A program made the translations under genes and the position numbers. From Candidatus Woesearchaeota archaeon (GTDB lineage: Archaea; Nanobdellota; Nanobdellia; Woesearchaeales; JASKKU01): DNA of 39,601 nucleotides. The notes beneath the pieces are model-generated. The model was given only the letters and a program-made list of their open reading frames with translations, made no database searches and was not told the origin of the DNA. Where the stretch lies: positions 1-39,601 of the forward strand of contig DSBS01000044.1 in NCBI GenBank assembly GCA_011045925.1. Reading direction: 5' to 3'. Positions 13,421 through 39,601 of the stretch are shown here, piece after piece (the stretch's first letter is position 1; every line of letters begins with the position of its first letter).

Positions 13421-13969
13421 ATGAGAAAAAGCCAGTTTTCTATGGAAACCCTAATGGTCGCAGGATGGGTTTTTGTCGTGGTTATGGGCGTTTTTTCTGT
13501 TGCCGCTGCCTTCGGGGTTTTTGACCTTGAAAACTTTAAGCAGCCCTACTGCAAGATTTACAGTACATTTGATTGTGAGGACTTCGGCTTAGATCAGAAT
13601 AATAATCTGCAAATTGCCCTGAAAACAGACTCATTAGTCAATATATCTATCTTAAGGGTCAAGGTCGAAACAACAAGAGGCAGTGATTTAGATACCATCG
13701 GCCCCAATGAATATAGACCTCCAGATTGCAAAACAAAGGAGGGAGGGAGTTGTCAGACAAAAAAAGTAAGGAAGGGTTATCCTCGTCAAGAATACCCAAT
13801 CCTGGCCGCAGGAACTCCTATTCAGATAGAAGTACCAAACCCTTCAGGTAATAAAAGGTTTTCCGGGGATATTATTATTGAGTATGTGTTTGTTTCCGGC
13901 ACAGGAGATATTAATGCAAATGAAGTGGGTCGCATAAGAACCGCAAGAGGCCAGATACTGGTTTCGTGA
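13421..13969 (+). CDS. Type IV pilin-like protein with class III signal peptide
   Basis: MRKSQ/FSMETLMVAGWVFVVVMGVFSV N-terminus. Paralogous to the next gene through the shared C.IYS.F.C..F.LD.N..LQ motif. Confidence 0.65.
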   Translation: MRKSQFSMETLMVAGWVFVVVMGVFSVAAAFGVFDLENFKQPYCKIYSTFDCEDFGLDQNNNLQIALKTDSLVNISILRVKVETTRGSDLDTIGPNEYRPPDCKTKEGGSCQTKKVRKGYPRQEYPILAAGTPIQIEVPNPSGNKRFSGDIIIEYVFVSGTGDINANEVGRIRTARGQILVS

Positions 13970-14022: not shown

Positions 14023-14484
14023 ATGAAAAACCCAGCAAGAGCCCAGGCAGCCATGGAGTTTATGATTACCTATGGCTGGATCCTGTTTATCGGAGTTGCA
14101 ATCATTGCAGTAATTGCTACCTTTACCAACCTGGATGCACTTGCCTTTAGGGCGCAGAAATGCGAAATATACTCAAGCTTTAAATGCCTTTCATTTGCAT
14201 TAGATTCAAATGGAGAATTGCAGGTAATCGTAGGAAACAGCGCACAGGATGAGCTAACCATTACAAGCGCTAGCTTAATTTTAGATTCAGGGACTGTGAC
14301 AGCAGGTTCAGGTTCTATTCCTTCAACATCATTAAAAAGAGGCACTGGAGCAAATTCGCGCGGAACTATAACATTCAACAATGTAGGCAGGAAAGTTGAC
14401 GGCAAGATTGAGATAACTTACTATTTTGGGAATGCGGATGCTTCAACACATACAGCAGTTGGCTACATATATACAAGAAGATAA
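14023..14484 (+). CDS. Type IV pilin-like protein with class III signal peptide
   Basis: MKNPARAQ/AAMEFMITYGWILFIGVAIIAV is a textbook archaeal prepilin N-terminus (PF04021-like). Cys pair CEIYSSFKC. Confidence 0.75.
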   Translation: MKNPARAQAAMEFMITYGWILFIGVAIIAVIATFTNLDALAFRAQKCEIYSSFKCLSFALDSNGELQVIVGNSAQDELTITSASLILDSGTVTAGSGSIPSTSLKRGTGANSRGTITFNNVGRKVDGKIEITYYFGNADASTHTAVGYIYTRR

Positions 14485-15226: not shown

Positions 15227-16042
15227 TCAGACCAGCGGAGCCTGCCCGCCGTACAAAGCCTTAAACTTGGAATTTGAAAACTCCAGCGTGTACATGTTAA
15301 GGTCGCAGTTTGTTGCCCTCATCTTGATTACCTGCAAAGACCTTATTACCTTCCTGTACTGCTCAGTCCTCTCAAGGTAGATAATGCCATCAGAAAGGTA
15401 ATCCTCAACCCCGTACTCGCTGTACCTTGACTTGTCCAGTGGCATTTCTGAAATCAGGAATGAAGTAACCTTCTGCTCCCTGAAAGACTCAAAAATATGG
15501 AAAAGCTCAGCCCTGGGGTTTTCAAACCTGCTAAGAATGTATAGCGCTGACAACGAATCCAGGGTAAATATGTCAAGCTTTGACTGCGTCTTAAACTTCC
15601 GGATAAGGTTTTTAATAACATTAATCCAGTCACCCTGCTCCCCAATCTTTGTATCCTTTACCTCTCTTCTCAGCGCTCCAAGGTCAACCACAACAAGATT
15701 GCCTTTTTTTGAAGAGTTAACCTCGCGGATTTTTTCATCAACCCTTGACACATCAGAGACAATAACAGTATTTATCTTAGACATGTCAAAATCCAAGTTT
15801 ACTGCATGGTTGACAAGAGACCAGAAAGACTGCTCCAAAGAGATGTAAAGGCAGGTTTTGCCCTCTAGCAAAGTGTTGTAAAACATCGTGCTGAATGCAA
15901 ACGAAGACTTCATAGAGCCTGATGTGCCTGCAAGCAGGATAACGCTCCCTTCAGGAATGCCCCCCTGCATAACCTCATCAAAGCCCTCAACATAAGTCTT
16001 AATTCTTGAGATTTCGTTTTTATTTATATTCGGCTGAGTCAT
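15227..16042 (-). CDS. KaiC-like RecA-superfamily ATPase (single domain) with non-canonical Walker A
   Basis: RIKTYVEGFDEVMQGGIPEGSVILLAGTSGSMKSS, YISLEQS, IFTLDSLSAL, DGIIYLE, LQVIKMRATN. The ATG overlaps the upstream stop (ATGA). AGGAGG lies 9 nt upstream (16052-16057). Confidence 0.85.
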   Translation of the reverse strand: MTQPNINKNEISRIKTYVEGFDEVMQGGIPEGSVILLAGTSGSMKSSFAFSTMFYNTLLEGKTCLYISLEQSFWSLVNHAVNLDFDMSKINTVIVSDVSRVDEKIREVNSSKKGNLVVVDLGALRREVKDTKIGEQGDWINVIKNLIRKFKTQSKLDIFTLDSLSALYILSRFENPRAELFHIFESFREQKVTSFLISEMPLDKSRYSEYGVEDYLSDGIIYLERTEQYRKVIRSLQVIKMRATNCDLNMYTLEFSNSKFKALYGGQAPLV

Positions 16043-32671: not shown

Positions 32672-33742
32672 TTAACCTATCAGGGTTGAAAAAATTCCTG
32701 TCAGGAAAAGGTTAAGCACTGTAAAAACAAAGCCGGACAATACAATAAAAGCCGGCATATATTTCAGGCCCGCCTTAATGTTCCCTTCCCTGATTATTGC
32801 AATAATCATAGATGAAAATACCGCAGTCAGGAATATTACTACATAAGACATTAAAGTAAATGTTGCCGGCTCTACAGGAACAGCCTCTATTGCACCAATA
32901 GAAAAAAGCCCTGTCTGCTGGACATCCTGGGGAATGCTTGCAGAGTCCATCTTTGATACAAAGCCTTCAAGAACCAGAAGAAACTGGTTAGAAAGCGCGA
33001 ACAGGAAAGGCGACACAAAGCACGCCACGATTACAATAAACATTACATAATTAAGGTTGGTTGCTGAAATATCCTTTTTTAGCTCTGAAGTGTTCTCAAG
33101 CTCTGAGGAAATTTTATCTACAATAGGGGATATTCTTGCTCCGCCAAGCAGGGACTCGCTTAATATCGAAAAAGTCCTGTTCAGGTCATCAGAGTCATAA
33201 AGCTGTCCCAGATAAATCAATGCATCGCCGGTGTTCTCGCCAACTGCGATTCTCTTTGCAACAAGCTGCAGCTCTTTTGAAAGCTCTCCGTAATCCGGCC
33301 TGATTGAATTCCAGAAAGCCTGCTCAAAGGTTGTTCCTCCCTTAAGGTTTTCAGAGACTGACTTTAAAAACCCCGGAAGATTCTCCTCCATGCTTCTTAT
33401 TCTCTTGTAGATAATGAAATCAAAATAAACCATAATAAAGGAAATAACAATAAAAAAGTAAACAGACAAATAAACCAAAGAGACAAACAGGAAAAACAAA
33501 GGGGTAATTACCAGGTTAAAAACGGTTCTCGAAACCTCAAAGGCTTCTGAAATATCCAAAAAGAAATATAAGCCTAGAACTGCAAGAATCATTGTAACAA
33601 AACCAGCAATAAATAGAGCCCCAAACAGAGCAAAAGGAGGATTCTCAAACCCGGCTTTTCTGGAATAATCTGAGAGGCCTTTCCTAAGCCTCTCAGGAGT
33701 AAGCGTCTTTCCTATAATCTCCAGAAACTCGAATTTTGCCAT
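32672..33742 (-). CDS. Type IV pilus/T2SS platform protein, T2SSF-domain (TadC/FlaJ C-half-like)
   Basis: Polytopic membrane protein with one T2SSF-like cytoplasmic domain (LKGGTTFEQAFWNS....LQLVAKRIAVGENTGDALIYL....LLGGARISPIVDKIS). Confidence 0.8.
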   Translation of the reverse strand: MAKFEFLEIIGKTLTPERLRKGLSDYSRKAGFENPPFALFGALFIAGFVTMILAVLGLYFFLDISEAFEVSRTVFNLVITPLFFLFVSLVYLSVYFFIVISFIMVYFDFIIYKRIRSMEENLPGFLKSVSENLKGGTTFEQAFWNSIRPDYGELSKELQLVAKRIAVGENTGDALIYLGQLYDSDDLNRTFSILSESLLGGARISPIVDKISSELENTSELKKDISATNLNYVMFIVIVACFVSPFLFALSNQFLLVLEGFVSKMDSASIPQDVQQTGLFSIGAIEAVPVEPATFTLMSYVVIFLTAVFSSMIIAIIREGNIKAGLKYMPAFIVLSGFVFTVLNLFLTGIFSTLIG

Positions 33743-33752
33743 TTTTACTCAC

Positions 33753-34538
33753 TTATAGGTTAATCACCGGCCTAACCGACTTGATTATGCTTATGAAAAA
33801 GTACTGCACAACTGCCAAAAGCAGAACAACAACCCAAATGAATACAGTAGGAAGAATTATGCCTACGAAAGTCAGGAAAACAAGCGAGATTGCAAACCCG
33901 AGTGAAGGAAGCACTATCGCAAGCACCAGATAAAGCAAAACGATTGTATTAAGCTTTTTCCCGTATTCTTTTATCTCCAGTGCCAGCTCGTTCCTTATTG
34001 AAGCAAGCGTCTCTTCTAAAGTGTAAGTTACATCGGCTCCTGTTTTGAGTGATACAATTAAGGGATAAAGAACTTTCTTAAACTTTGAGGAAGGAGTCTT
34101 TTCCCTTGCCTGCTCTAACGCTTCCTCAATAGGGGTGCCTGTGTTTATTGCAGTAACAATGCCTTTAAAAAAATCACCAGCAACAGTATTGTCTGAAGCA
34201 GCATCAGTAAGCGCCTGAAGAATTGGGATTCCAGAGTTTATCTTCAAAAGAAGGTACCTTCCCGCAAAAAGAACCTCTTTATCCAGCTCTCTCTGAAGGT
34301 GATAAATCTTTAAGTCCAGGGTTCTGTTGTAAAAAGAAACCATGCCAACAAAAGAGGCAAGCAGAATCAGGGGATAGACCCAAAGAAGTCCGAAGCGGGT
34401 TACAAAAGCAAAGAAAAGGGTTAAAGCCAAAGAAGACATAACTGCTGAAATCATGGTTCTTCTCTTGAACTCCCTGGGGCTTATATCCAGCTTTGCAAGC
34501 TCAAGCTTCCTTTTCAGCTCAATTTCCTTAAGGTTCAT
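33753..34538 (-). CDS. Type IV pilus/T2SS platform protein, T2SSF-domain (TadB/FlaJ N-half-like)
   Basis: LLLKINSGIPILQALTDAA....FFKGIVTAINTGTPIEEALEQA....LIVSLKTGADVTYTLEE, flanked by TMs. ATGA overlap with the ATPase gene. Confidence 0.8.
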   Translation of the reverse strand: MNLKEIELKRKLELAKLDISPREFKRRTMISAVMSSLALTLFFAFVTRFGLLWVYPLILLASFVGMVSFYNRTLDLKIYHLQRELDKEVLFAGRYLLLKINSGIPILQALTDAASDNTVAGDFFKGIVTAINTGTPIEEALEQAREKTPSSKFKKVLYPLIVSLKTGADVTYTLEETLASIRNELALEIKEYGKKLNTIVLLYLVLAIVLPSLGFAISLVFLTFVGIILPTVFIWVVVLLLAVVQYFFISIIKSVRPVINL

Positions 34539-35992
34539 TTTTTCTTAATGTCTTTTTTATGGTAATACTTAGATATTAATAACCCGACCTTATCAACATC
34601 ATCAAACTGCTTCTCAACAAGCCAGTTGATAAACTTAGTCTTCTTAGCCACATCTGCAAGAATCGCGCTCTCGCTTAAGCCTGAATAAAGGTTTATCTCA
34701 TCAATAATCCTTTTTGGCTTTTTTGCCATGATAAACTTATCCGTTGAAAAATTATACTGAAAGATTACATTTTCATTTCCGCTGTCATCAATTTCTGCCA
34801 CCTGGAGGGTTTTCCTTTTTCCAGTCCTTCTGTTCCTGAACTGAACCACTATAAGCCCTATGGAAGAAATTAAGTTTTTTGGCAGGTCAATTGGAGGGTT
34901 TGTAAGCCTGTTAATGGTTTCATGGGCGTTGTTCGCATGAATTGTCCCATAAACAGAATGCCCAGTATGCATCGCCTCAAAAAGAACTTCAGCCTCTCTT
35001 TTCCTTCTGATTTCTCCCACCAGTATCCTGTCTGGCCTCATCCTTAGCGAGTTAATAACCAAGTCCAGCATTGTAATCTCGCCTTTTCCTTCCGGGTTTG
35101 CAAGCCTAGTTTCCATTGGAACCCAATGAAGATGGTCCGGAAGAACAAGCTCTCTTGTATCCTCTATGCTTATAACTCTCTGGTTTGGAGGAAGGAAATT
35201 GCTTATTGCATTTAGCATAGATGTCTTTCCTGAAGCTGTGCCGCCAGCAACAAGGATAGAAAGCTCGTACTGCATTGCAAGCCATATCCAGGCAGCAACC
35301 TCTGATGTCAAGGTTTCCTTTTTTATCAAATCTACAACTGTCCAGGGCTTGTCAGAGAACTTCCTGATTGTAAGTGTATTGCCCGTAGTGGAAATAGGGT
35401 ACAATGTTGCATTTACCCTGTCTCCGGTCTTAAGAGTTGCATCCATAAGTGGCTGAAGCACTGTTATGTCTTTTCCAACCTCTCTTCCGATGAGGGTTGA
35501 ATAGTGCCTTATCTTTCTCTCATTCTCAACAAAGATATTTGTTTTAAGCCAGCCATACTGCCTATGATAAATCCATACACAATCCTTTGCGCTGTTAACA
35601 ACAATTTCTTCCAGGTTTGAATCGTTAAGGAGAATCTCTATTTTTCCAAGGCCAAGGTTTTCCCTGATAAGATGATTTACCAGGAAATCAGCTGTCGGCA
35701 TATCAACCTGCGGCAGGTATTTTCTTATCAGTACATGCAGCTCCCTTATGAACTCCTTTTCAATTGCCTTGTATCCCTGCTCTATAGATATATTCACCAC
35801 GCCAATATTAACCTTTGAGACGAACTCTTCCTTAATCTTCTCAAGTATTCCCAGTGTAACCTTGCTTATGTTAAGAATGGAGACAGTGTAAACAGGAACA
35901 AAGTCATCCGGATAAAGGTTAATCCGAACATTCGCAACAAGGTCATTAACCTTGATTTCATACTCATCCATTAGTTTTTCCTTATTAGACAT
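34535..35992 (-). CDS. Type II/IV secretion family ATPase (archaeal FlaI/ArlI / TadA-CpaF-like pilus assembly ATPase)
   Basis: Walker A VAGGTASGKTS. ISIEDTRELVLP. Walker B/Asp box PDRILVGEIRRKREA. His box MHTGHSVYGTIHA. Confidence 0.92.
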   Translation of the reverse strand: MSNKEKLMDEYEIKVNDLVANVRINLYPDDFVPVYTVSILNISKVTLGILEKIKEEFVSKVNIGVVNISIEQGYKAIEKEFIRELHVLIRKYLPQVDMPTADFLVNHLIRENLGLGKIEILLNDSNLEEIVVNSAKDCVWIYHRQYGWLKTNIFVENERKIRHYSTLIGREVGKDITVLQPLMDATLKTGDRVNATLYPISTTGNTLTIRKFSDKPWTVVDLIKKETLTSEVAAWIWLAMQYELSILVAGGTASGKTSMLNAISNFLPPNQRVISIEDTRELVLPDHLHWVPMETRLANPEGKGEITMLDLVINSLRMRPDRILVGEIRRKREAEVLFEAMHTGHSVYGTIHANNAHETINRLTNPPIDLPKNLISSIGLIVVQFRNRRTGKRKTLQVAEIDDSGNENVIFQYNFSTDKFIMAKKPKRIIDEINLYSGLSESAILADVAKKTKFINWLVEKQFDDVDKVGLLISKYYHKKDIKKK

Positions 35993-38438
35993 TTTCTAGA
36001 CCCCCGGGGAATTCTCCCAATGAACCTTCTGAAGCATAATCCATGCTTAATGATTGATGGAGTTCAAAAACCTTTTGCTTTACTGCTTCAAGGTCCTCCT
36101 TTAAAAAGAAAGGCATTGAGGAATATGTCTGAAAGAACCTTTTAAGAGCTGCCCTGGCATCATTAGCCCTTCCCGACTTAACCAACTCTTCTATATGAGA
36201 AAGCTGCCTGAGCAAAAAAGAAAGCCCGGATGACTTATCCAGCTCAGCCTTTTTCTCAAGGCTATAAAGCAGCCTTTCATACAGGCTGTTGGAATCGGAA
36301 AGAAGCCTTAGCTTAACCCTGGATGTTTCCATTGATGAAACCAGTCGCGACAACTCATCATAAATAACCAAGGCGCTTTCAACCTTGTTCTGCTCCAGGG
36401 ATGTATTAAACTCTCCTGAAAGCTGCTTAAAGCGATTAATGCTTGTACGCTCGTTTTGGATTGCATTCCTTGTTTCAGCAATCTGAAACTTTACCAGGCA
36501 GCCAAGAAGCTTATGCTTAAAGAAAATCTTTTGCTCAGGAAAAAGCTCAGGAATTTCAAACACCACCTTTTTGATTTTCTGATATCTTTCTGCAAAGTCG
36601 CCTAGCTGGTTTAGGCTGATTTTTGCTTCCATCGCCTCTATTTCTGCCTTAACGGTTGAAAAGATTGAAGAGAAAACTGCCTTGTTGTCCCTGAGGAACT
36701 TGCTTATAATCTTATCCTCAAGCTCTGACGCCTTTTTTCCCAGCTCAAGGGCTTTCTCAGAGAAGAAGCCTTGTGACAAAATCCTGCAAGCTTTTTTTAT
36801 TCTCTCAAGCTTCTCCAGAGACTCATTCAGCCTGTCTTCTGAAAATAGCCTCTCGGACTCAACAAAGCTCAAAGATAATTTTTTTAGCAGGAAATGCTCT
36901 TTATCCTTTTTCTGAATCTTTTCCTTATTCATCCTTTCCAGGTCTGGCAGAGACTGGATGCTAATGTTTTTGCTCTGTGCATTGCTTTCTGAGCCTGGCT
37001 TTCCCTCCAAAGATTCTGGCAAACTCGGAACTGTACCCTGAGAATCCGTGCCTAAACCCGGTTTCTGGCTTCTGGCGTTTTGCTGTTTAAGCTGATTATC
37101 GTGAAACCCTGGTTTTGCTGGAGCCTTAGCCTGCTCTTTCTGCCTTGATGCTAGCTGTGGATGTGGCTGCATTTGTTTTGGCTTTTCAGGCAGCTGGCCG
37201 CTTTCAAGCGAGCTTTCAAGTGAAGCTTCCTTTAGGTTCTTCAGGGCTGATGACAAGGACTCAATTGCGTCCTTATGGGCTGGTGCCCTGCCTTGCTCAA
37301 AACTTGAGCCAGAAGCAGATTCTTGAGCTAAATCTTGTGTGGGGCTAACCTCTGTTTCTGGTGGGAATGTGCTTAGCCCAGGCTGGCGGGATTCAAAGTC
37401 TTCATAGCCAATCAACTCTTCTTTTAGCTCTTCCTTCTCTTTCTTGGGGGTTTTCCTGAACCGCGACCTTCTCTCAATGTCTTCTCTTAATCTTAAAAGC
37501 TGGTCATTAAACTGGTCCCTGGAGGGAATAATCATATTAAGGATTTCGTCGGAAAAGCCTAACTCGTCAGAGGAGTTAGCTAAATTTTTAAGGGAATTCA
37601 TGTAGCTTGCTGTCTCATCGCCTAAGATTGGATTAACATTATAAAGCCTGCCTGTATTAATAAGCGATATTGCCTTTTCCTGGCTAAGCTTGGTTTTCTG
37701 CAGGTCTTTGTTTTTTATGCTCTCTCTTATCTCATCCATCTGAATCAGAAAAGCCTTCTTTTTAAACCCCCAAAGCTTGAAAAGGACTGCCGTTGATATA
37801 AGGTTGTTAAACAAAGAATCCTCCTCGGCTGAAATTCTTTCCTTTGTCCTGGAGTAAAGAGAAGAAAGCGATTCAAGATAAGAATCAAGAGACTCATAGA
37901 AATCAAGAATCTGCCGGTCATTCAGGCTGTAAATCATTTTAAAGAGCTTTTCATTGGCCTTCTCACACAAGCCTGCTATCTCCTTATCAAAGATATTTCT
38001 CTCTTCTTCAGGCAGAACCTTTGGAAGTATTGATGATACCAAGGCGCGAATAGTAATTTTTATGAAAATTGAGGCGATGTTGGTTTCAAGAGCAATAAAC
38101 CTGTTTAGCTGAGCCTTTGCACCTGAGAAAAAATCATCTGCTTCCTTGGGCATGTAGTCAAATGAGCTTTCAGTATTGGTATCAGGCATATCCTTTAGTG
38201 AAGCCTTTTCTGCTTGCTGCCGTGAATCAGGCTTAACATCTGATTTTAATGAAACAATTGTGTTTGTCAGCTTGTAATCTATCTTAACAAATCCCAGCTG
38301 CTCAAGAAGCTGAAGCGTGTTTTCAAGAATGTCCTTTTTTATTTTGCAGATCTTTGAGAGGTCATCTACTGAGATTGAGCCCTTTTCCTTGATAATATTA
38401 ATGATATTATCTGCTTCAGTTTCTATTTGGTAAGGCAT
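35985..38438 (-). CDS. 817-aa protein: N-terminal winged-helix-like domain, helical/coiled-coil regions and a central P/Q/S-rich disordered linker; first gene of the pilus operon
   Basis: IINIIKEKGSISVDDLSKICKIKKDILENTLQLLEQLGFVKIDYK. Low-complexity residues ~355-500 (nt ~36940-37376). Its stop overlaps the ATPase start by 8 nt. Confidence 0.6.
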   Translation of the reverse strand: MPYQIETEADNIINIIKEKGSISVDDLSKICKIKKDILENTLQLLEQLGFVKIDYKLTNTIVSLKSDVKPDSRQQAEKASLKDMPDTNTESSFDYMPKEADDFFSGAKAQLNRFIALETNIASIFIKITIRALVSSILPKVLPEEERNIFDKEIAGLCEKANEKLFKMIYSLNDRQILDFYESLDSYLESLSSLYSRTKERISAEEDSLFNNLISTAVLFKLWGFKKKAFLIQMDEIRESIKNKDLQKTKLSQEKAISLINTGRLYNVNPILGDETASYMNSLKNLANSSDELGFSDEILNMIIPSRDQFNDQLLRLREDIERRSRFRKTPKKEKEELKEELIGYEDFESRQPGLSTFPPETEVSPTQDLAQESASGSSFEQGRAPAHKDAIESLSSALKNLKEASLESSLESGQLPEKPKQMQPHPQLASRQKEQAKAPAKPGFHDNQLKQQNARSQKPGLGTDSQGTVPSLPESLEGKPGSESNAQSKNISIQSLPDLERMNKEKIQKKDKEHFLLKKLSLSFVESERLFSEDRLNESLEKLERIKKACRILSQGFFSEKALELGKKASELEDKIISKFLRDNKAVFSSIFSTVKAEIEAMEAKISLNQLGDFAERYQKIKKVVFEIPELFPEQKIFFKHKLLGCLVKFQIAETRNAIQNERTSINRFKQLSGEFNTSLEQNKVESALVIYDELSRLVSSMETSRVKLRLLSDSNSLYERLLYSLEKKAELDKSSGLSFLLRQLSHIEELVKSGRANDARAALKRFFQTYSSMPFFLKEDLEAVKQKVFELHQSLSMDYASEGSLGEFPGGLENV

Positions 38439-38515
38439 TAATACTTTTAAAAGAAAGTAAATTAAAAAGGTTTTGAACTACTTTAAAGTGTTGTAAGCAA
38501 AATTTAAGAACAAAC

Positions 38516-39178
38516 CTACTCTTGCTTGAGAAACTCAAAGGAAAAGGATTTTTCCTTCATCTCAGGAATTCTTTCCTTAAGCTCTTTTTCAAGCTCTTTA
38601 ACAACATTTTCTGGCACAGGCTTTGCATTTACTGAAACAGAAACAGCTTTTTCAGAAACATCCAGTTTTTCAGGTTTTTTCCCGATAAGCTCGCTTATTG
38701 CTATCTCAAGCTTTTCCTTTGGCTCGTCAAAGGTTCTTAGGATTTTAAATTTATACTCGATATCCCTGCCGGCAAGCGGGTGGTTAAAGTCAATCAGCAC
38801 TCTTCCTCCTGTAACTGACTTGATTATTCCAGGAAGCCCGTTTATCTCAACCTGCAGGCCAACTACTGGCTTAAGCTCACTCTCAGAAAACTTAGAAGCC
38901 GGAACAAGCCTAATCAGTTCTCTTTTCCTTTCGCCAAAAGCATCTTTTGCTTGAAGCAGTATTTCGTAATCCTTTTCCAGCTCTTTATCTGCAAGAGCAT
39001 CATTAAAGCCTTTTGGAAAAAAGCTTTTTCCAATTTGGGTCATTCTTGGAGAAAGCTTCTCAGCATCTCCTCCTTCCTTTTCAGCAACAGTCTTTATGTT
39101 TGTATCAAAGAGCTCGCCTGTGCTCTTAATCCTGCCTTCAAAATCAAGCTCAATAAAATCAAGGTTCTTTGTTTTCAT
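38516..39178 (-). CDS. FKBP-type peptidyl-prolyl cis-trans isomerase (SlyD-like, with insert-in-flap and C-terminal helical extension)
   Basis: FIELDFEGRIKSTGELFDTN, GLPGIIKSVTGGRVLIDFNHPLAGRDIEYKFKI. The start is trimmed to ATG 39178 because the track extension overlaps the tRNA gene. Confidence 0.8.
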   Translation of the reverse strand: MKTKNLDFIELDFEGRIKSTGELFDTNIKTVAEKEGGDAEKLSPRMTQIGKSFFPKGFNDALADKELEKDYEILLQAKDAFGERKRELIRLVPASKFSESELKPVVGLQVEINGLPGIIKSVTGGRVLIDFNHPLAGRDIEYKFKILRTFDEPKEKLEIAISELIGKKPEKLDVSEKAVSVSVNAKPVPENVVKELEKELKERIPEMKEKSFSFEFLKQE

Positions 39179-39253
39179 GAAAATAAGGAATCTGAGGAAA
39201 TGTTTTAAAGGTTTCGTAAAAGATTTAAAGAATTGCCAAATCTGCTTGCTTGC

Positions 39254-39325
39254 GCCTCTGTGGCTTAGTCGTATAGCGCATCCTTGGTAAGGATGAGGTC
39301 CCGGGTTCAACTCCCGGCAGAGGCT
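39254..39325 (+). tRNA. tRNA-Thr (anticodon GGU), no encoded CCA
   Basis: Hand-folded cloverleaf. Acceptor stem GCCTCTG/CAGAGGC. Anticodon stem CATCC/GGATG with loop TTGGTAA (GGT at 39286-39288). T arm CCGGG-TTCAACT-CCCGG. 5-nt variable loop. Discriminator T. A TATA-like AGATTTAAAGAA lies ~20 nt upstream. Confidence 0.9.
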
Positions 39326-39370: not shown

Positions 39371-39601
39371 ATGGCATTAAAAAAGAAAGGCCAAATCTTC
39401 ACTGGGATTATGGTTCTTGTCTTCATTATGGTGGTAGCATTAATTCCTTCACCAAAGATAGACCAAAGCTATAAAGACCTTCACAAATGGGAAAACCTTA
39501 TTATGAGAAATGCCGGGATTTTATACCAGCTCGAAAACAGCGTTCTCCCAAGAGCAACGAGGACTATATCATATTGTGCAATGAAAGAGGTTGCTGAACT
39601 A
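39371..39601 (+). CDS. 3'-partial ORF with a class III signal peptide-like N-terminus (possible third pilin-like gene)
   Basis: My own translation: MALKKKGQ/IFTGIMVLVFIMVVALIPSPKIDQSYKDLHKWENL..., open to the window end. A TTTTTTATAC box lies ~21 nt upstream. This ORF is not in the supplied track (no stop within the window). Confidence 0.4.
   Translation, partial: MALKKKGQIFTGIMVLVFIMVVALIPSPKIDQSYKDLHKWENLIMRNAGILYQLENSVLPRATRTISYCAMKEVAEL

Follow-up and report, generated by a model that had tools for sequence, protein, structure and literature searches.

A probable operon for non-archaellar type IV pilus assembly in a DPANN archaeon and its winged-helix helper protein

The 39,601-nucleotide contig DSBS01000044.1 of the Candidatus Woesearchaeota archaeon assembly GCA_011045925.1, taken whole and here called the window, carries on its minus strand a run of four open reading frames (ORFs) that very probably forms the core of a non-archaellar type IV pilus assembly system of a DPANN (Woesearchaeota-type) archaeon. 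In order these encode a large helper protein, a T2SSE-family secretion/pilus assembly ATPase and two platform proteins, of the N-terminal-half and C-terminal-half type respectively, each with a single T2SSF domain (Table 1). The hallmarks of a type IV filament system are present, the locus having the T2SSE ATPase with an adjoining T2SSF platform and the genome supplying class III pilins and candidates for the A24 prepilin peptidase. The window is the entire contig C1 of an assembly of 942 kb in 99 contigs that is 91% complete, and archaeal housekeeping genes are present (TFIIB, a RIO kinase and a wyosine-synthesis enzyme); other contigs are cited below by their C numbers and related loci by their L numbers.

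The operon and its motor proteins

The genes are tightly packed, and their coordinates, shared strand and junctions read from the sequence just as a preliminary description of this stretch had given them. The helper and ATPase genes overlap by 8 nt (ATGTCTAA), and a GGGGG stretch stands ~11-15 nt upstream; the ATPase and first platform gene share an ATGA overlap, and the two platform genes are set apart by a 10-nt gap. The same description had placed a leaderless-type TATA in front of the operon. Judged by eye, positions -30..-23 relative to the helper ATG hold a TTTTTAAT box, and no Shine-Dalgarno motif is seen between box and ATG, which is compatible with a TATA box and a leaderless transcript, and so the box stands and the leaderless start keeps the rank of a by-eye suggestion. 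Within the four genes themselves there is no pilin, A24 peptidase or KaiC gene, again as had been described.

The ATPase has an intact P-loop, and GGTASGKTS and further motifs are invariant in 11 orthologues. Its best-scoring NCBIfam model is FlaI, at 280 bits against an equivalog cut-off of 550, and it scores 140 with the VirB11 model (cut-off 250) and 165 with the BasE model (cut-off 1000). Matches in the PDB by phmmer are to AfGspE (245 bits, the best by raw bit score), FlaI of S. acidocaldarius (216) and CpaF (166), the nearest bacterial relative being CpaF at 32-39% identity. A maximum-likelihood tree was built on the shared core of the ATPases with PDB sequences (AfGspE, FlaI, CpaF) and plasmid-borne CpaF, VirB11, TrbB and haloarchaeal ATPases as references, EpdL, UpsE and AapE lying outside the sampling. 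Three CpaF in all were included, two ATPases from haloarchaea and one TadA-like from an actinobacterium, with VirB11/TrbB as outgroups. A first version had no outgroup, and in it a sister of CpaF and a basal archaeal lineage were not separable; in the second the CpaF, VirB11 and C25 branches are long and long-branch artefacts are possible.

A 100/100 split places AfGspE with the haloarchaeal and archaellum ATPases on one side, and there an ATPase from C12 of this genome joins S. acidocaldarius FlaI at 100/100, apart from that of C1. On the other side, beside CpaF and VirB11, stands a DPANN clade (98/98) with the C1 ATPase and a paralogue from C16 inside, and CpaF shares a group with VirB11 and TrbB that is separate from the DPANN clade (97/99). 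The preliminary description had asked whether the phylogeny would put the ATPase with the archaellum or with VirB11, and it falls in neither clade. As the archaellum motor ArlI it is ruled out by the model score, by the tree and by the true ArlI on C12, and as a VirB11 conjugation ATPase by the tree, by the model score and by its T2SSF platform neighbours. Its position outside the archaellum/system 2 group matches clade 1 (Epd) of Makarova 2016 and System 1 of Sivabalasarma & Albers 2026 (PMC13705601). Membership of the Epd lineage/System 1 is consistent with these sequence comparisons but unproven, because EpdL is absent from the tree and some of its branches are long, and so of the Tad/Epd-like character first proposed the type IV filament core and the split platform hold, and the Epd placement is a consistent one only.

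The smaller platform protein aligns to positions 24-250 of the 484 in UpsF, in the N-terminal half, and the larger to positions 196-464 of the 465 in ArlJ, in the C-terminal half. Since the two thus correspond to the halves of full-length archaeal models, the pair looks from the alignments like one platform gene split in place with the unsplit order kept. Two single-T2SSF platform genes are a trait of Epd/System 1 that is present here, but two tadC genes are common in clade 2 loci too (Makarova 2016), and so a split platform alone is not discriminating.

Table 1. Features of the operon, of the helper protein and of pilus-related genes. Positions are those of the window unless a contig is named; a slash in a signal precedes position +1. 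AlphaFold2, AF2; predicted local distance difference test, pLDDT.
Feature	Position	Strand	Description
Putative promoter region	38439..38515	-	intergenic, 5' side of operon; TTTTTAAT box
Helper protein (first gene)	35985-38438	-	817 aa; homologous gene directly upstream of ATPase in relatives
Winged-helix domain of helper	38241..38438	-	residues 1-66; confident ~8-64, AF2 pLDDT 75-87; 9 K+R, 10 D+E
Predicted disordered linker of helper	36951..37409	-	residues 344-496; pLDDT <50; 47% PSQGT
C-terminal helical repeat domain of helper	36030..36950	-	residues ~497-803; pLDDT 74-94; four degenerate 74-residue LPxGF-type repeats
T2SSE-family secretion/pilus assembly ATPase	34535-35992	-	485 aa; Pfam T2SSE 1e-36
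Platform protein, N-terminal-half type	33753-34538	-	261 aa; one T2SSF domain, Pfam 2.8e-14
Platform protein, C-terminal-half type	32672-33742	-	356 aa; one T2SSF domain, Pfam 1e-10
Type IV pilin, likely substrate	14023..14484	+	153 aa; signal MKNPARA/QAAMEF, Q+1, E+5; 18 kb from motor
Second pilin paralogue	13421..13969	+	182 aa; signal MRKS/QFSMET, Q+1, E+5
Membrane-anchored Cys-rich protein, N-terminus	39371..39601	+	pilin-like start KKKG/QIFTG; rest at C48:5983-6987
Second module	C48:116-1273 (-) and C16:118-3471 (+)		winged-helix/coiled-coil helper, ATPase, two half platforms; divided by contig break

Conservation, pilins and genome setting

The identical four-gene order is kept in 9 relatives from within the same taxonomic order (several families), across which ATPase identity is 55-90% and helper identity about 22-47%. 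A word-based homologue search with the helper returned one relative only (46% identity, synteny fully conserved), and the helper family came to light only through whole-genome and profile searches, its profile picking out 1724 representatives from 1.84 billion proteins at E<=1e-3. When named genomes were scanned with the ATPase alignment, 80 best loci of 42-61% identity emerged, titled mostly as DPANN (Woese-, Pace-, Nano-, Micr-, Aenigmat-, Iain- and Parvarchaeota and Altiarchaeales), the cultured Ca. Micrarchaeum A_DKE (L099) and AR10 included; ~12 of the 80 are titled 'uncultured Methanosarcinales archaeon' or 'uncultured archaeon'. Counted with hidden Markov models (HMMs) from our own alignments, a winged-helix gene lies upstream on the same strand in 59 of the 72 loci whose upstream DNA is long enough. 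The N-half and C-half platform genes are separate in 59 of the 67 with enough downstream DNA, and pilin ORFs with Q+1 and E+5 occur within 7 kb in 47 of the 80. The stop/start overlap of helper and ATPase genes is likewise found in many relatives. Comparative synteny, which the preliminary description had proposed as a check, thus shows the four-gene order recurring across DPANN phyla. In six Micrarchaeota loci (L068, L071, L076, L077, L083, L099) an extra gene of ~210-610 aa without an HMM match separates the ATPase gene from the first of the platform genes.

Such an arrangement has been described before. Hamm et al. 2024 (Nat Commun 15:6449, PMC11291902) reported two conserved type IV pilus-like loci in cluster 2 DPANN, Woesearchaeota included, each with genes for a coiled-coil protein (CCP), CpaF and TadC; the loci range over Woesearchaeota, Pacearchaeota, Nanoarchaeota, Aenigmarchaeota and others, and CCPs were found by proteomics in Ca. 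Nanohaloarchaeum antarcticus. According to PMC13705601, ATPase and platform genes are adjacent in DPANN and pilins scattered, System 1 (Epd-like) pilins occur in 1990 DPANN genomes, and System 1 occurs chiefly in groups such as methanogens and Nanobdellati. The features that had seemed peculiar, a 'minimal core' whose operon lacks pilin and peptidase genes, together with an 'unusual accessory' first gene, are by these two papers the published norm of DPANN, and the locus is ordinary for its lineage. Neither paper mentions the winged-helix domain or the LPxGF repeats of the helper.

Three ORFs of the window had been put forward as candidate substrates. Of these 13421 and 14023 are genuine class III pilins by orthology and fold, both being orthologues of Q+1/E+5 pilins that stand beside the module in relatives, and by BLAST the whole length of 14023 is homologous to the pilins encoded next after the platform genes in L036 and L037. 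An alignment of 17 pilins that includes the two has Q+1, E+5, one Trp and one Cys invariant and a second Cys nearly so. The AF2 model of 14023 (pLDDT 85.9) has a long N-terminal helix and an eight-strand beta-sandwich, and its top Foldseek match in the PDB is the archaeal type IV pilin 8FK7. Pilin genes directly follow the platform genes in L034, L036, L037, L040, L041 and others and precede the module in some relatives, a signal of this kind in relatives reading ...KKA/QAAMEFLMTYGWAILVV...; the linked pilins are 143-189 aa long with a beta-sandwich and so are not of the short EpdE/Flp-like type. The third candidate, 39371, is pilin-like only, with Q+1 but no E+5; a gene adjoining the L037 module matches it weakly, and its link to the pilus is uncertain.

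The genome-wide scan for class III signals that had been suggested found several pilin families, at least four, with further Q+1/E+5 members at C11:121-1100. At C11:16513-19444, running off the contig end, are minor pilin-like genes (133, 136, 167 and 520 aa), a cluster that resembles the minor-pilin clusters adjoining the motor in other families. Tandem pilin-like proteins of ~90-130 aa, with the signal RKA/QGLSLNFVIVGIIALVV, are encoded at C29:226-2436 and C41:2732-3130. The short ~90-aa C29 pilins were considered as part of the C1 module and rejected, being absent beside the modules in all related loci scanned.

No A24 peptidase is encoded in the window, as had been noted, and the genome-wide search found two candidates, on C50 (Peptidase_A24 at 55.6 bits, above the 26.5 cut-off) and C59 (Arc_PepC at 26.9 bits). 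Both carry both Asp motifs, and as to their subtype, EppA or other, only weak FlaK and Arc_PepC matches were obtained. A KaiC-like gene does occur in the window outside the operon, at 15227-16042, where a beta-propeller gene is its partner. Relatives from Pacearchaeota and Nanoarchaeota have a KaiC-like gene immediately after the platform genes, with a divergent minor-pilin cluster upstream. The window gene was considered as a missing second ATPase and set aside, as the module-linked KaiC genes of relatives match C62:3974-4729 best in this genome.

Four ATPase/platform sets are found in the genome, on C1, C16, C12 and C25. The C16 set is a close paralogue of that on C1, with a 496-aa ATPase and platform halves of 268 and 348 aa. 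It begins 117 nt from the contig end, and its first gene lies at the end of C48, encoding a 385-aa helper paralogue with a winged helix and a long K/E-rich coiled coil. The opposite end of C48 holds the remainder of ORF 39371, and because the contig ends carry these two pieces C1, C48 and C16 can be joined. The modules are then divergent neighbours with GrpE-DnaK-DnaJ, TatD, the Cys-rich membrane protein and an FKBP gene between them, and the same two-module layout is seen in the same-genus relative L015-L017. The FKBP-type peptidyl-prolyl isomerase gene (38516-39310, minus strand; domains FKBP_C and FKBP26_IF) adjoins the operon on its upstream side in the same orientation, a position kept in the genus and family (L015, L031-L033) and not further out.

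The archaellum cluster is separate from the C1 operon, on C12, where the ATPase scores 685 bits with the ArlI equivalog model (cut-off 550) and an ArlH-like neighbour 209.9 bits, slightly below the 215 cut-off. The cluster (C12:6513-12082) looks complete, in a ~1-Mb DPANN genome, and holds small ArlF/G-like, ArlH-like, ArlI, ArlJ-like and archaellin-like genes, with more archaellin-like genes at C7:21500 and C27:8115. The set on C25 (C25:5305-9677) is a divergent pair of ~750 and 720 aa, an unusually long ATPase (749 aa) that forms a very long branch in the tree and a 722-aa T2SSF-like platform protein, with no adjoining pilins. This pair is a candidate for the assembly machinery of the short C29/C41 pilin-like proteins.

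The helper protein and competing explanations

No Pfam or NCBIfam model is above threshold for the helper, only sub-threshold winged helix-turn-helix (HTH) matches being found, nor is any family of these libraries above cut-off for the winged-helix domain in 8 further orthologues. An AF2 model computed with nine orthologues has the N-terminal winged helix, a helical domain 1 at residues 99-343 of medium confidence, a disordered linker whose length differs among the aligned orthologues, and the C-terminal repeat domain. In relatives the last consists of four or five exact 74-residue LPxGF repeats, the exact period being seen in L034, L036, L037 and L040. Foldseek matches the N-terminal 63-69 residues to MarR/ArsR/AspA winged helices with probability 1.0; for the whole model there is no match at E<=0.001, and beyond the winged helix only low-TM matches to TPR or designed repeats. 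Of the winged-helix/coiled-coil protein first described the winged helix is thus borne out, and the rest is not chiefly coiled coil, having helical domains and LPxGF repeats instead.

Across the family the winged helix is the constant element and its partner varies. It is found fused to LPxGF repeats or to coiled coils, or alone in a small gene with that of a helical protein next after it. In Pacearchaeota and Nanoarchaeota the domain is at the C-terminus of a membrane-anchored protein (L094, L100, L101, L106, L089). Its profile's nearest solved relative by sequence is the LrpA HTH (E=3.7e-5). The domain is acidic, with a mean net charge of -2.6 and a pI of 4.9 over 64 orthologues, and the basic recognition helix of LrpA, AVRKRVKALEEKG, has become tVEEWAdfLEEEG in the helper family. 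It probably no longer binds DNA. The helper has no signal peptide or class III signal, and its maximum 19-aa hydropathy of 1.69 is borderline, with no clear transmembrane segment.

Because of the charge pattern, the lack of a signal or clear transmembrane segment and the stop/start overlap with the ATPase gene, a cytoplasmic adaptor of the motor is favoured over a regulator or a fibre as the role of the helper, and we give it about an even chance. In the mechanism that would follow, the ATPase as a hexamer would drive a platform of two separately encoded halves, which would draw pilins out of the membrane and join them into a polymer. These pilins, of the class III Q+1/E+5 type, would be cut by the A24 prepilin peptidase from C50 or C59, and matching ones are encoded 18 kb off (13421, 14023) and on C11. 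The helper would most likely dock through its acidic winged helix on the motor, either on the ATPase or on the cytoplasmic face of the platform, and its variable helical part (here a helical domain, the disordered linker and four 74-residue LPxGF repeats) might be a scaffold or regulatory arm. The assembled pilus may serve in adhesion to a host or a surface; the preliminary description had suggested attachment or DNA uptake. A bolder version, which we hold possible though doubtful, is that the acidic winged helix defines an obligatory DPANN-specific cytoplasmic subunit of the pilus motor, docking on the ATPase with interchangeable arms (74-aa LPxGF arrays, coiled coils, transmembrane anchors) from which a ring, ruler or regulatory hub in the cytoplasm would be made. 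It would then have arisen independently as an analogue of ArlX/ArlCDE or TadZ, its source being an Lrp-like domain that once bound DNA and lost this ability.

Apart from the adaptor, the helper could be a one-component transcription regulator and no structural part of the motor, its winged helix binding DNA and its TPR-like repeats sensing a signal so as to co-ordinate the operon with the scattered pilin genes, which need co-regulation (PMC13705601). The winged-helix profile is closest to Lrp/AsnC, MntR and MarR HTH domains, there are weak Sul12a/Lrs14 matches, with weak TPR matches in family members, and one source names an orthologue 'MarR family transcriptional regulator'. However the acidity of the domain and the replacement of the basic residues of the recognition helix by E/E/W speak against DNA binding, translational coupling to the ATPase, in this locus as in many relatives, would be expected of partners made together rather than of a low-copy regulator, and the domain is carried on a membrane-anchored protein in Pacearchaeota and Nanoarchaeota, all of which makes a regulator rather unlikely. 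A sigma-1-like exported attachment fibre or tip protein displayed by the pilus machinery is a far less probable identity. It would fit the structural resemblance of DPANN coiled-coil proteins to viral sigma-1 (PMC11291902) and the long coiled coil of the C48 paralogue, but most orthologues share with the helper the lack of a signal peptide, class III signal and clear transmembrane segment, the N-terminus is a folded winged helix and not a pilin helix, and Foldseek gave no fibre-like match.

The module as a whole might instead be no pilus motor, and use a type IV filament core in a bindosome-like or a secretion or DNA-transfer device for other class III proteins or DNA. Archaeal cores have been re-used in such ways, for instance in the Bas system (PMC13705601), class III-like proteins are numerous in the genome and differ in size, some being large, and the operon itself is without a pilin. 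We consider this very unlikely, as small pilins of helix and beta-sandwich lie within the same cluster in many relatives, the BasE score is far short of its cut-off, and domain scans of the window proteins found no type IV secretion system or Ced components adjoining the operon.

Several points do weigh against a pilus motor with a cytoplasmic helper. As this one genome has four ATPase/platform sets and its pilin families number at least four, the pairing of 13421 and 14023 with this motor is drawn solely from synteny in relatives. The helper model has a predicted template modelling score of 0.31 overall, with helical domain 1 of medium confidence only, and the relation of the winged helix to DNA-binding regulators seen in the LrpA match is compatible with a regulatory role. 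The published likening of CCPs to the viral attachment protein sigma-1 would moreover make them extracellular (PMC11291902).

Contact with hosts is essential to DPANN, and type IV pili are prime candidates for making it. The locus adds a well-resolved DPANN pilus motor with two paralogous modules, a synteny-based assignment of pilins and an archaellum encoded apart. An acidic winged helix that is probably not DNA-binding argues for a cytoplasmic motor partner over an extracellular fibre, and if the helper is such an adaptor it would explain how reduced genomes organise or regulate their pili. The interest that remains is in the role of the helper.

Comparison with known systems

The archaellum motor (ArlI/ArlJ/ArlH) draws on the same ATPase and platform superfamilies. 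Unlike it, the C1 operon has an ATPase at 280 bits against the 550 for ArlI, and the ArlI, ArlJ, near-cut-off ArlH and archaellin-like genes of this genome are on C12. As in the bacterial Tad system (CpaF/TadA, TadB, TadC) an ATPase gene is followed by two half-size platform genes; unlike Tad, no TadZ, secretin or Flp pilin is seen in the domain scans of the window or the pilin scan of the genome. The platform order also differs, the usual bacterial order being tadB-tadC. Since TadB aligns with the C-half and TadC with the N-half (Denise 2019), Tad has the C-half type first, whereas here the N-half gene is first.

With the Epd pilus of Methanococcus maripaludis, or System 1 (Makarova 2016 clade 1; Denise 2019; PMC13705601), the locus shares two single-T2SSF genes beside the ATPase, Q+1 pilins and, in a tree without EpdL, an ATPase branching outside the archaellum/system 2 group on the CpaF side. 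In contrast to Epd, the linked pilins have a globular domain, the operon has no KaiC/FlaH-like gene and no peptidase, and there is a winged-helix helper, none being described for Epd.

There is also a likeness to the CCP-CpaF-TadC loci of DPANN, the Nanohaloarchaeum proteins being compared by description. There as here the gene for a large helical protein adjoins those for a CpaF-like ATPase and TadC-like proteins, and there are two such loci per genome, which in this genome are C1 and C48/C16. Unlike the CCPs as described, the C1 helper looks cytoplasmic and has a conserved acidic winged helix, and the rest of it is built of 74-aa LPxGF repeats in place of a coiled coil.

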